A program made the position numbers and the translations under genes. 64,000 bases of DNA from Octopus vulgaris (taxonomy: Eukaryota), in the NCBI GenBank assembly GCA_951406725.2, contig OX597814.1, positions 30,194,001 to 30,258,000 of the forward strand. Reading direction: 5' to 3'. This document shows, one piece after another, positions 4,061-56,425 of the stretch (positions within the stretch are counted from its first letter, which is position 1; each line of letters starts with the position of its first letter). A model generated the notes under the pieces. That model was not told the origin of the DNA. It did not search any database and worked only from the letters and a program-made list of their open reading frames with translations.

Positions 4061-7000
4061 CTGAAAAATATAAAGAAATGCATATCAATTTTAACCTGTA
4101 ACTTCAGAAACAGCAAGGGAGCATCAACCTGCTCAGTTTATCTGTTAGAAATAGCAGCCAAATTGCTATCAAATTACACACACCCATCATGGGAAAGGAC
4201 ACATTGGATATTGCAGACTTAATATACTTTTGAAAAGGGGAGAATGCTTACAATCCTAGGTTTATTAAATCAGGGTCAATCTAGGGGTTAAACAACAATT
4301 GAATAATATTCTTGTAACATGTTACATCACATCTTACTTTGGCTGCCATCAAATCTCTCTTTGTGAGACTAAGTATGTATATCTTAAGCACTTGACTAAG
4401 CTTGAATATCTTTCTTTGGTGATCACTTAATGATATTGAATATAAACATTGCCAAATCATCAGAAGAGAACTGTAATTCTCTCCATTGTTGGTTACCAAT
4501 GTTAGTTGATAGGCTGTGAACAAATATAACAAGCTGAGAACTCTCAGTATATTCATTAGAATCTTTTGTGTGTGTGTGTGTATATATATATATATATATA
4601 TATCATCATCATCATTTAACGTCCGCTTTCCATGCTTTCCTAGCATGGGTTGGACGGTTCAACTGGGGTCTGGGGAGCCCGAAGGCTGCACCAGGCCAGT
4701 CAGATCTGGCAGTGTTTCTACAGCTGGATGCCCTTCCTAACGCCAACCACTCCGAGAGTGTAGTGGGTGATTTTATGTGCCACCGACACAGGTGCCAGAC
4801 GAGGCTGGCGAACGGCCACGCTCGGATGGTGTTTTTTTTGTGCCACCGACACAGGTGCCAGACGAGGCTGGCAGACGGCCACGCTCGGATGGTGTTTTTA
4901 TGTGCCACCGACACAGGTGCCAGATGAGGCTGGCGAACGGCCACGATCGGATGGTGTTTGTTACGTGCCCACAGCACGGAGGCCAATCGATGCGGTACTG
5001 GCTACGGCCACGTTCGGATGGTTATCTTGTGTGCCACCGGCACTGGTACCACAAAGATACAAATTCCATTGATGTTCATCTATTTTGATTTGATTTGATT
5101 TAAGTTTGATTTGATTTGATATAAGTTCAGTAAAATATAGATTCAGTTGAATATGGTACTTAAGTTAAAGGTACCAGAATTTAGTATGGTATTATCCATA
5201 TAATTCAAAATGGGGTGATTATAATCAAAATAAGCAACAAGGATATCCAGAGGTAATGCAGTACAATCGTTTCATGCGACTCCATTTAATTGAATATTAT
5301 AATGCAGAACAATCTTCAGCTGCATAAAAATATAGAATTTAGTTAAATTCGAAGGATTCATTTGTAAAGTTCTCTTATTATCCAAAATCTTTGTCTATCT
5401 ACTTATCCTCTTTGTGATTTTGGATAAAAGGAAAACTTTACAAATGAATCCTTCAAATTTAACTAAATTCTATATTTTTATGCAGCTGAAGATTGCTCTG
5501 CATTTTAAAATTGATGTAATATTTGCATTGTTCAATTAAATGGAGTCGCATGAAACGATTGTACTGCATTACCTCTGGATATCCTTGTTGCTTATTTTGA
5601 TTATCATATATATATATATACTAGCAATATGACCCAGCAACGCTGGGTCATAGTGCTAGTGCATGCATATGCAGCTGCGTGCGTGTGCACATACACGCGA
5701 GTACTGTCCAAATCTCCGACCAATCACATACAGCTAGCTGGCATTCAATTGGCGTATCAACTTTTGGACATTTTGATGGGTTTTGGATAGAAAATTCACA
5801 AAAATGTCACTTGACTTTGCAGGGTGACTGTGGAAATGTAAAGATGTGTACGGCCACCCTTGGACGATTTTGAATGACCATAGAAAGTGTGAGCTCTCTA
5901 ACTGAAAAATTGTGGATTTGTATAAAGGATACACACACACACAGACATTTTGCCGTTTATATATATATATATATATATATATAAAAGAAAATAATTTATG
6001 AAATTCTCTGGCATACTAGTGAAATTTTTCAGACCAAAATTTCCAACCAATAAGGTAGGTCGAATTATACAGCAAGATGACTGGAAAATAAAATATTCCA
6101 TGCAAAATGCAGCAGGATTTGGAAAGATAGTGACAATATTTGAATGTTTACACTTCATGTTTACACTATATGATTATGTTGACTTGTATATCTGAAAATA
6201 TGGTAACATTTTTAGTTTATAAGTGAGATAAAGAAGAAGGAGAAAGAGAAGCTAGAGCGTCTGCTGAAATAGAAAAGATTTGGCTCATAAACTTACCGTT
6301 TCACATTTATCAACTTTGAAAGCCATGTTCTCTCTAATTATTTTTGCTGTGGGAGTGTGCAGAAATTTGCTAATGTGTAAATTTTGTCTTTCTTTGCAAA
6401 GTATACTTACATCCATGCAAATAACCATTACTCAAATGCTTAGCGCGCCGGACGAAATGCTTAGCGGTATTTCGTCTGTCGTTACGTTCTGAGTTCAAAT
6501 TCCGCCAGGGTCGACTTTGCCTTTCATCCTCTCGGGGTCGATAAATAAAGTACCAGTTTCGCACTGGGTCGATATAATCGACTTAATCCCTTTGTCTGTC
6601 CTTGTTTGTCCCCTCTATGTTTAGCCCCTTGTGGGCAATAAAGAAATATATATTGATCACCTAAGTGAATGCACACCATTTTTAAGTGTTATTTTTTAAA
6701 GGTTTTGTTATGAAATTATACAGCTCATTACTTTGGTTAAAAATATTCAATTTCATCTTGAAAATCTTGTGTGCATACATCTTTTTGCATTTGCATACTA
6801 TTTGTAAAATGTGTGTGCATACACCAGCTCACAGCTTAAATGGAACATTAGTTGAAAGGATGGAAGATATATTGACCTCTCTGGGATTTGAACTCAAAGC
6901 ACAGATAGCCAGACTAAATACTGCCAAGTATTCTCTACACCAGCGCAATGCCAAAAAAAAAAAAAAAAACACTAGTCAATGCGTCAACAATTGAGTGAGA

Positions 7001-10000
7001 GTATTACTTCATGGATACTTGATGTGCTAGAAACAACAGTGAATTTCCATTAAATCACAACCCTTAGAAAATTAAAGGACACCTTAGATAATGCAATCAT
7101 AGAAACTCTGAAAATGATAGAATTGTAAATGCTAGAATACTTTTACTATTGTAATTTTCTTGTCAAGAGAACTTACTGTTGGTTTAGAATCTGCCAATAA
7201 GTTGTTTATATATAGTAAATTATAATACCACGAATCCTTACAGTAGTTAAACTCAAAGCCATTAGGTGGCCAGTAAGGTCCACTACCCCAGTATGGGAAC
7301 AAGGGTATGTATACCATCATGACAAGCATATAGGGAGGAGTCAAACTGAAAAGAAAAAATAAAACAAAAAACAAGATTTTTTTTTCCAGTCATAATGTTT
7401 TTTCAAAGTATTGAAAGAAAAAAAAACCCAAAATGTACCCCAACATATGCTAGATATTGCCTAAATATAACCCTAAAGACTTGACTGATGAATCTTGCTC
7501 ATTAAAATTTTATTGTTGGGGGAGGCTTCACCTAAAAATTTTGATTCTGAAGTGTTGCGTTCAATACCCTAATATTCTGGGGCGATGAAACTTATTTTTT
7601 ATTTTTTTTTTTTTCACTACCCACAAGGGGCTAAACATAGAGGGGACAAACAAGGACAGACAAACGGATTAAGTCGATTACATCGACCCCAGTGCGAAAC
7701 TGGTACTTTATTTATCGACCCCGAAAGGATGAAAGGTAAAGTCGACCTCTGCGGAATTTGAACTCACAACGTAATGACAGACGAAATACCGCTAAGCATT
7801 TCGCCCGGCGCGCTAACGTTTCTACCAGCTCGCTGCCTTATGGGGCGATGAAACTTATTTGTCCGTCTTTCAGTGTCAACAATGACCAAGGACATCATAT
7901 TGGAGAAGATAGGTCACAGTGTGACTGGCTGTGGCCAATCAGTTTGACACATGCATGGAAGGCTCTTCCACAGGTCAAGCCCTGGTGGTCTACTGGGACT
8001 GAAAACAAACAGTAGGCTCTGGACTTGCACAGTTTGCTTGTTCTTTGTACCCCTGTAATCTTGATCTGTTTGAAGGAAGTGGCACCACTGTTGGTGCAGC
8101 TTTGTCAGGCAGAGCAGTTTTATGCTTGCATTTCTCAGGTATTGGGGTTGATCTCAAAGCTCTTCAGAGGCACTTTGAGTGTATCCTTAAAGTGCTTTTT
8201 CTGTCCAACTTGCATGTGCTTGTCTTCTGCCAGTTTGTTGTAAAATGACATTTTAGATTGTATCCACAAGAAGGGCATCTGATTGATTGGCAACAATTCA
8301 CTCACAGCACACTACAAGCAATAGCTCACAGATATGATGTTTCTTAGAACTTACCACTTTTATTAGAAGGTTCCCCTCACGCATACACATACACACATAT
8401 GGCCATCTTAGATTACATGATTTAAAAAGCTCTCTGATTGACTGATCAAGATTTGCTCACCAACATACCTCAATAGCTAGTTTAGAGGTATATTGTTTCT
8501 TAACTTTATCTCTTCTATCACAGCTGCAATGATCTAATCTCTTCTCTTCTAATATAGCTAGTCACACACACTTTTTACTTAAGTCCACATGGCACATCCA
8601 TTTCCTAATCCTCTCATCAACTTTTCTGTGTCTCACATCCCAGATCCTGCAGTCCTTTCCAAGACTGAAATCCCCTGGAATCTCCTCTCAAACTGTTCAG
8701 GCTGAATGTCTTCAAGCTGAGATCTTCAAGCTGAAGAATCAACTACATCTATATCACCTGCCTGGGAACTCAAGATGAAGTAGTGGAGCATTACCTCCCT
8801 TGGTTAACTTATCAATCTGCCAGAAGTAGTTATTCAATCTGTTTCAAATCATATTTTTCACTTTGATGTTTAACCCTTTAGTATTTAAACCGGCCCTATC
8901 CGGCCAAAATATTCTACCTATTTTATGTTCAAACTAGTCAGATATGGTCATTCATAGCTATCTTATTGTGTCTTTTTAAAAATAAACAGTCACATCATTG
9001 AAATCTCAAAGCCATGAAATGATGCAAGGTTAATTTTACATGGTGTGAATACATAAGCTTTACATTTTACAGAATAATCTGAATGCTAAAGGGTTAAGTA
9101 AAGGTACTTACCGCCAAAATCGATGACAATAGAAATACAACCAGTTCATTTTACCATTTGTAGTTTCTATAGCCTTGAAAAAGCTATAAGCTACCAAAAG
9201 ACCACTAAAAAAGAAAATAGTAAAAATAATATGTATTTATTTCATTCTACTAAATTCACTCTACTTCATTCATATAACATTTTATTAAATAACTTCAGTT
9301 GAACAGAACAGGTTATCCATCCACTCTTTATACTTGTGAGTTACTAGTGTCATTGCCATGAAAAATGTATTCAGCACAATCTGTAAAGTGGTTGGTGCTA
9401 GGAAGTGTATTCATGGCCAGCAGACACCTGTTGTTATGTTTTGTTATTTGAATTTGTATTTGTGTAACATTTCCCCATTTTATTTTCTGTCCTTGTTTTC
9501 ATATATGTTCGCTGCTTTCTTCCAAGGAATCTAATGCTCTTAGCTTAGTTTTTCCTTGGGGCTAGTCAGATTGGAGCAATCTCGAGTATAACCAGCTGAA
9601 ATTGCAAAGATAATCTGGAACTCGACTGAGGACAGAAAACTCCAAATGACCTGTCCTTGTTTTCTTTGTATCATCTGTCTGGATGTTTTGTTGTCATGAC
9701 ACAATATAGGTAAAGAAATTTGAGAAATTTGAAATGTAAAAAACCAAACCGGTTATTTCTCCAAAAACAATGTTACTATATGCAAAATTTTCTAACATTT
9801 TTCTAACATAACAATTTAAATATATTCTGTAACCACATCTCACCTATATATATATATATATATATATATATATATATATATATATATATATATATATATG
9901 TATGTATGTATACATATTTATATGTATACATATTTATGTATATACATATGTATGTTTATATATATATATATATGTATATACTGGCCTAGGGGGTTAGGGT

Positions 10001-56387: not shown

Positions 56388-56425
56388 TCTTTCTGTGGAA
56401 GAGCGTAGGCTCGAAACGTTAAAGA
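56388..56425 (+). ncRNA. Minimal hammerhead-like motif (CTGTGGA core)
   Basis: TCTTT-CTGTGGA-A-GAGC-GTAG-GCTC-GAAAC-GTT-AAAGA; helix I and stem II perfectly paired. Confidence 0.6.

Follow-up and report, generated by a model that had tools for sequence, protein, structure and literature searches.

The 64,000-nt stretch of Octopus vulgaris contig OX597814.1 analysed here (positions 30,194,001 to 30,258,000; hereafter the window) carries hammerhead-shaped motifs from several repeat families, which would mostly be tail ends of 5'-truncated Penelope-like elements (PLEs), left as single mutated copies that for the most part would not cut. The probability of this reading is put at about 0.7. Seven of the eight sites named in an original prediction, made by a model from the DNA letters alone, are real hammerhead-shaped RNA motifs, and the eight together go back to seven insertions, which belong to five or six families. 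Repeats abound in the window, animal DNA with a GC content of 33-44% over most of its length; all results refer to this window unless stated otherwise.

The original prediction had placed type I hammerheads at 5256, 5480, 30907, 36459, 45721, 46263, 47486 and 56388 (coordinates in Table 1), and the sequences it described are present there. Core positions are given in the general hammerhead numbering. The core YUGANRA with GAAA and NUH around helices I and II is found without mismatch at five of these sites, and at seven when one mismatch is tolerated and helix I has at least 3 pairs; 30907 is without a helix I and 56388 departs at position 6. A strict first descriptor recovered two of the eight (56388 and 47486). 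A relaxed one, permitting U3-A8, a single base left unpaired at the top or the bottom of stem II, and GAAAC-N0-6-GT-H, gave seven matches at no more than one core mismatch and at least 3 pairs in helix I and in stem II, all of them within the named eight, versus a mean of 0.245 and a maximum of 3 in 200 local dinucleotide shuffles of the window (0/200 reach seven); this descriptor was composed after the sites had been inspected, which makes the shuffle control somewhat generous. With no core mismatch and a helix I of at least 5 bp, four matches are found in the window versus none in all 200 shuffles. Widening the descriptor at position 15.2 adds 44453 (minus strand) and its inverted partner 44491, for six matches against a mean of 0.22 in 100 shuffles. 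Type I topology is thus confirmed at seven of the eight sites, the predicted pairing of helix I failing at 30907, which has one pair. Stem III is a perfect palindrome at 30907, 56388, 46263, 47486 and 44453, and about one change away from one at 5256/5480, 36459 and 45721.

The proposed tie to PLEs is supported by a reverse transcriptase (RT) in the window, by the hammerhead behind it, by fold-back insertions and by near-identity to an Acropora Neptune hammerhead. The RT of 26549-27922 has 1172 longer homologues, the best full-coverage ones being 60-63% identical and many carrying a GIY-YIG domain (PF01541), and its tblastn match falls in three pieces (E 3e-138). Pfam gave nothing significant on eight window open reading frames (ORFs), RVT_1 reaching only E 0.006 on the trimmed RT. 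The four closest homologues among the matches listed carry a CxxxxCxxC linker followed by a GIY-YIG endonuclease, and this linker is tied to Neptune and Nematis PLEs in PMC8557442. The window RT ends precisely where its homologues start the Cys linker and the endonuclease; it is followed by 3 kb of CA-rich DNA and then by the 30907 motif. The stop at 27922, before the CA-rich tract of 27922-30900, may reflect a deletion or an endonuclease-less derivative. The 30907 motif and its (TA)28 lie on the same strand as the RT, about 3 kb downstream, and the GC skew is strongly negative and continuous across 26-32 kb. Strand and continuous skew make it likely that 30907 is the 3' terminal repeat of this element.

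Relatives of the 30907/56388 motif outside the window were collected with a pattern that fixed stem II and GAAACGT and left core positions 4, 6 and 7 free. At least 119 metagenome loci match it, in 101 distinct contexts among the matches listed; a pattern scan of viral contigs gave no match. The commonest form among the matches listed is the motif given for Neptune of A. digitifera in the supplement of PMC4209133, except for one stem II base, and for this reason 30907 and 56388 can be classed as Neptune-type minimal hammerheads; their departures from the A. digitifera motif are confined to a single base of stem II, the loop and helix I. Across the 101 listed contexts, position 6 reads A 98 times, U twice and C once, the two U6 loci (L043 and L047) having been dropped as chance matches with a GC content of 0.67-0.68 and no helix I. 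Position 4 is U in 61 of these contexts and C in 37. C4, absent from the alignment of 56 motifs published in 2014 (PMC4209133), is thus common in Neptune-type hammerheads of animal contigs among the matches listed (L001-L119), and by this sequence count it is widespread. Helix I lies outside the search pattern and was followed in 76 rows obtained from the 119 listed loci by merging duplicates, stem II being left uncounted because its invariance is imposed by the pattern. In these rows 79% of the helix I cells are paired and 19 changes are two-sided, and none of 500 shuffles is as high. Among the 119 loci listed, 20 have an inverted copy nearby and none a direct copy.

Where at least six families had been predicted, the eight sites hold five or six, and a further one, 44453/44491, had been overlooked. 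Sites 5256 and 5480 form one fold-back insertion, 45721 and 47486 belong to one family, and 30907 and 56388 are related. The core is canonical at 5256, 5480, 36459 and 46263, with a helix I of 5-7 bp, and departs from the canonical form at 45721 (U3-A8), 47486 (U3.G8), 56388 (U6) and 30907 (C4). The 44453/44491 family forms fold-backs at 44323-44621 and 48264-48591, in which an outward-facing UUGAAAA (U3-A8) hammerhead lies close to the centre; the third copy, near 48405 in the latter fold-back, is decayed. Other fold-backs lie at 5218-5607, 47317-47700 and 41054-41211. The 5256/5480 and 44453/44491 pairs and the pieces of the 45721 family thereby show the known insertion form of PLEs, for which inverted 5'-truncated partners and a preference for (TA)n are described in PMC8557442. 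That most copies end in (TA)n, as had been stated, is half true: (TA)n of at least five units follows within 100 nt at 5480, 30907, 36459 and 56388, while at three sites there is no more than (TA)3-4, 150-270 nt away, and the nearest (TA)n of this length is 653 nt away from 5256. As background, 14% of random window positions have one within 250 nt.

On known PLE biology, these remnants would arise when the PLE endonuclease nicks AT-rich DNA and the RT copies from the terminal repeat, often halting early or turning back, which would leave 100-300 nt with a hammerhead and sometimes an inverted partner. In the parent element, the palindrome of stem III would allow two copies in tandem to cleave as a dimer; an inverted partner would yield an antisense RNA, not a second ribozyme.

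The family of 56388 was followed through contigs of four public runs aligned to 56215-56488 at 80% likeness (9211, 5619, 8797 and 2625 contigs). The runs are labelled A, D, E and again A, i.e., three organism labels, the last run being only guessed to be RNA; the 2,625 sequences of this run (X13) are contigs and give no evidence of expression, ends or circles. Summed contig depth is no copy number, and its peak over the motif stems partly from the flank mismatches of the window copy itself. At 56396, no letter other than U reaches 4% in any of the four runs, and single-letter differences are visible in these alignments, such as an 84% change at 56420; U6 is therefore a state of the family and not decay of one copy, which makes this variant stronger than the original prediction knew. 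Changes within the motif include CpG decay at 56404/5 and 56417/8, and U4A reaches 6% in one run. Beyond CpG decay, C3, G5, G8, A9, GAAA and stem II show no alternative letter at 4%. H17 varies as U>A at 29-84% and U>C at 0.4-8%, with G under 4%. Loop II is as invariant as the core, and for this reason the invariance may merely mean that the family is homogeneous. Some members of the family have disrupted outer pairs in helix I (56388 T>C 24-50%, 56424 G>T 2-11%), and no compensating helix I change is listed in the four runs. The contigs continue upstream of the window copy, with loose ends at 56341. A second repeat family, with an 8-bp hairpin and contigs in all four runs, occupies 56215-56304 on the minus strand; loose ends and a 2-nt insertion in its other copies suggest that a hammerhead-like 5' core has been lost here.

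Several explanations compete with truncated PLE ends. That the sites are chance matches of a loose pattern in AT-rich repeat DNA is highly improbable. It would fit the lack of Rfam support, as the window gives no match at the gathering score and no hammerhead family among 134 matches at E ≤ 10; since neither cut-off brings one up, the claim that standard models miss these motifs holds. It would also fit the fold test, in which 12 of 13 isolated segments have z above -2 and fold no better than shuffles, 46263 being the sole exception (z -3.1), a result expected for minimal motifs that nonetheless lends no support either. Chance likely accounts for 36629 and possibly for 24877, listed in the original prediction as degenerate cases, which pass no descriptor setting tried. 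For the seven sites it is refuted by the shuffle comparison; the perfect-core matches, the near-identity to a published motif and the outside loci that share it argue against it as well. A second explanation, that most families are discrete non-autonomous retrozyme-like elements with small self-cleaving circular RNAs mobilised in trans by PLE protein, is close to the retrozyme ecosystem originally proposed and is unlikely. Retrozymes measure 150-450 nt and are present in molluscs, and dispersed monomers that derive from PLE repeats exist, according to PMC7229834 and bioRxiv 10.64898/2026.07.22.740005, respectively. It is the 45721/47486 family that fits best, since its proportions are those of canonical metazoan hammerheads and retrozyme monomers. 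Its unit of about 314 nt (44.6% GC) begins at the same long stem in both copies. At 45721, helix I has 6 bp, stem II 4 bp with a 6-nt loop and stem III 2 bp with a 4-nt loop, and helix I continues beyond a 3x1 internal loop for about 40 more pairs; the two family regions fold with z of -4.85 and -6.33. Among the families of the window, this one alone combines canonical type I features (6/4/2-bp helices and a looped extension of helix I) with a non-coding unit of 150-450 nt. The consensus of its copies holds 31 pairs, of which 6 show two-sided and 6 one-sided changes, a covariation that comes from two copies and from RNAalifold, which picks compatible pairs. The hammerhead fold costs 4.7 and 3.6 kcal/mol over the minimum, which at 45721 is another fold. 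A fold-back of the 3' half of this family, without the hammerhead, is seen at 40989-41211.

The definition of a retrozyme rests on a head-to-tail tandem array, and no tandem array lies over any hammerhead site in the window at periods up to 500, family copies being inverted or dispersed; without a hammerhead in a head-to-tail repeat, the term does not apply here. The 30907 motif sits behind an RT, the contigs of the 56388 family run upstream past its window copy, and no common 5' end is seen at the five other loci, each of which is a fold-back or stands alone. Truncated 3' remnants of PLEs thus explain most sites, and the proposed ecosystem finds little support beyond 45721/47486, the only family that looks like a discrete unit, which is a candidate retrozyme-like monomer and likely a short non-autonomous passenger of the PLE machinery. 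A third explanation takes the U6 motif for a natural core variant that is still active, cutting in dimeric form or with the aid of the element's protein; this is doubtful. In its favour, U6 is fixed across runs from three organism labels, the core and stem II are stable, and positions 7 and 17 vary within the allowed letters. A natural A6C variant keeps a low activity, under 0.1/min (PMC3088659), and in PMC11167929 a PLE hammerhead needed protein to cut in vitro. Against it stand the equal invariance of loop II, the uncompensated breaks in outer helix I, U4A in one run, and the full mutational scan of PMC9901934, in which all single mutants of the CUGA turn are low. U6 would likely cripple cutting, and measurable cleavage by the motif is improbable. 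A reading in which a very high-copy PLE family common to several related animal species has fixed U6 yet retains cleavage, by dimers or through its own protein, is just as questionable. Most likely, the U6 family spread with a crippled ribozyme because insertion needs no cleavage; in PMC11167929, catalytic mutants left PLE insertion in vitro undiminished.

The preferred reading, mostly non-cutting tail ends of truncated PLEs, has points against it as well. One family alone is tied to the RT, over a 3-kb CA-rich gap without an endonuclease remnant, and tblastn of the window finds no coding remnant near the other seven sites. Clear (TA)n follows only half of the eight sites, the architecture of the 45721 family is canonical and not minimal, and the helix I count of the outside relatives comes from related sequences and can beat shuffles through kinship alone. 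Apart from CpG decay, the 56388 family varies mainly at two free positions, N7 (G>C 15-17%) and H17, a pattern that hints at continuing constraint on the motif.

Set beside known systems, the finding as a whole is ordinary, as animal genomes rich in PLEs hold such motifs by the thousand, spread over many families. PLEs of 190 families account for 6.83% of the O. vulgaris genome (supplement of PMC13282606, the main text of which, as far as consulted, has no mention of ribozymes), and over 6000 hammerhead motifs in 16 families are on record for one coral. The minimal hammerheads of PLEs described in PMC4209133 share with the Neptune-type motifs the core, the unpaired base after A9, G10.1-C11.1, the palindromic stem III and the short helix I. 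They also depend on dimers and occur as many families per genome, mostly as single motifs tied to truncated PLEs, with opposite-strand pairs 100-700 bp apart. Their alignment prints both UUGAUAA and UUGAAAA cores (U3-A8 covariant) and both the U3-A8 and U3.G8 forms; its set holds no cephalopod and, in contrast to U6 fixed at 56388 and C4 at 30907, its 56 motifs are all A6 and U4, as its descriptor required. Among the natural core variants of PMC3088659 are U3-A8, U4C (from a viroid), the U10.1.U11.1 mismatch at the base of stem II and a change at position 6; there, A6C is one phage motif of low activity, whereas A6U here is a family state with thousands of distinct contigs per run. Metazoan non-LTR (long terminal repeat) retrozymes (PMC7229834; bioRxiv 10.64898/2026.07.22.740005) resemble 45721/47486 in the canonical helices, the extended helix I, the size of about 310 nt, the GC content of about 45%, the absence of a coding match and the high self-pairing, and differ in that 45721/47486 is not tandem in the window, has a U3 core and leaves pieces as PLE-style fold-backs. 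Of the core variants that standard models had been expected to miss, U3-A8, the extra base and C4 are thus already in print; for U6 alone, no printed family was found in the consulted literature, supplements and 56-motif alignment of PMC4209133, whose descriptor required A6, a range outside which Lunse et al. (2017) lies and could hold cases. What goes beyond print is one core variant, U6, and one retrozyme-like candidate, the 45721 family.

Table 1. Hammerhead motifs, repeat units and coding remnant of the window
Position	Strand	Feature	Basis
5218..5607	.	Fold-back insertion in which one hammerhead-bearing element end occurs twice, inverted	81% self-inverted match, alignment; (TA)7 after the plus-strand copy
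5256..5325	-	Type I hammerhead: canonical core, 6-bp helix I, U.U at stem II base, GUA site	Descriptor
5480..5569	+	Inverted partner of 5256: same anatomy, stem II insert 20 nt longer	Alignment, descriptor
26549..27922	+	Frameshifted, 5'-truncated Penelope-like RT, no endonuclease found behind it	Homologues; tblastn; atlas 0.97
30907..30942	+	Minimal hammerhead: C4, extra A, 4-bp stem II, ACGT palindrome, 1 helix I pair	Descriptor; (TA)28 95 nt downstream
36459..36519	+	Type I hammerhead: canonical core, 5-bp helix I, near-palindromic stem III, GUU site	Descriptor; (TA)7 42 nt downstream
44418..44458	-	Minimal hammerhead, U3-A8 core (UUGAAAA), not in the original prediction; arm of fold-back 44323-44621	Widened descriptor
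44486..44526	+	Inverted partner of the 44453 motif	Widened descriptor
45677..45985	+	Unit of ~310 nt, ~45% GC: hammerhead on long extended helix I (45677-45811) and 3' part ending TA-rich	Folding, alignment
45721..45766	+	Canonical-size hammerhead: U3-A8, no extra base, GUC site	Descriptor
46263..46341	-	Type I hammerhead: canonical core, perfect 7-bp helix I, long stem II, fully palindromic stem III, GUU	Descriptor; fold z -3.1
47441..47571	-	Second copy, same long stem around hammerhead 47486-47530 (U3.G8); inverted 3' piece 47590-47700	Inverted match, fold z -6.3
56341..56516	+	3' remnant of very high-copy family, then (TA)191	Public-run contigs
56388..56425	+	Minimal hammerhead, U at core position 6 (56396), extra A, 4-bp stem II, ACGT palindrome, 5-bp helix I	Contigs, descriptor

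Other hammerhead candidates were rejected. The segment 24877..24940 (plus strand) has a canonical 5' core but GAAT for GAAA and is no hammerhead as it stands; it is the arm of an inverted pair with its partner at 24135-24341. At 36630..36670 (minus strand), a 5-bp helix I and GAAAC are found, but the core is three letters off and the match is indistinguishable from chance. GAAT or CAAA stands in place of GAAA at 32929/32865 and near 9650; the former lies in a near-perfect fold-back hairpin (32826-32967) with CTGAAGA, then a weak stem and GAAT, and the decayed segment at about 9590-9690 resembles it and is possibly another decayed PLE end. The minus-strand candidate at 36284, within a short inverted pair (36170-36423), combines a perfect core with GAAAC and a 4-bp stem II, yet it lacks helix I and carries a G at position 17. 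Long-spacer matches at 11070, 40992, 42831 and 51594 occur at frequencies within the shuffle rates. Among other repeats, weak integrase-like fragments at 49431-50204 (rve, E 0.099) are probably the remnant of an LTR retrotransposon. A dispersed repeat with internal tandem units of 63-67 bp, which we take to be SINE-like, occurs at 4766-5022, 25649-26269, 33932-34223, 38786-39111 and 62304-62429, and two of its copies are inverted around 25365-26539.

For cephalopods, the 45721 family is a candidate retrozyme-like element. The U6 family bears on the role of PLE hammerheads, as it would speak for either a newly tolerated core letter or amplification with a dead ribozyme. An active U6 motif would be a natural core variant that searches for CUGANGA fail to see; a dead one, the more likely case, would make the family natural evidence that cleavage is dispensable for PLE amplification in vivo.

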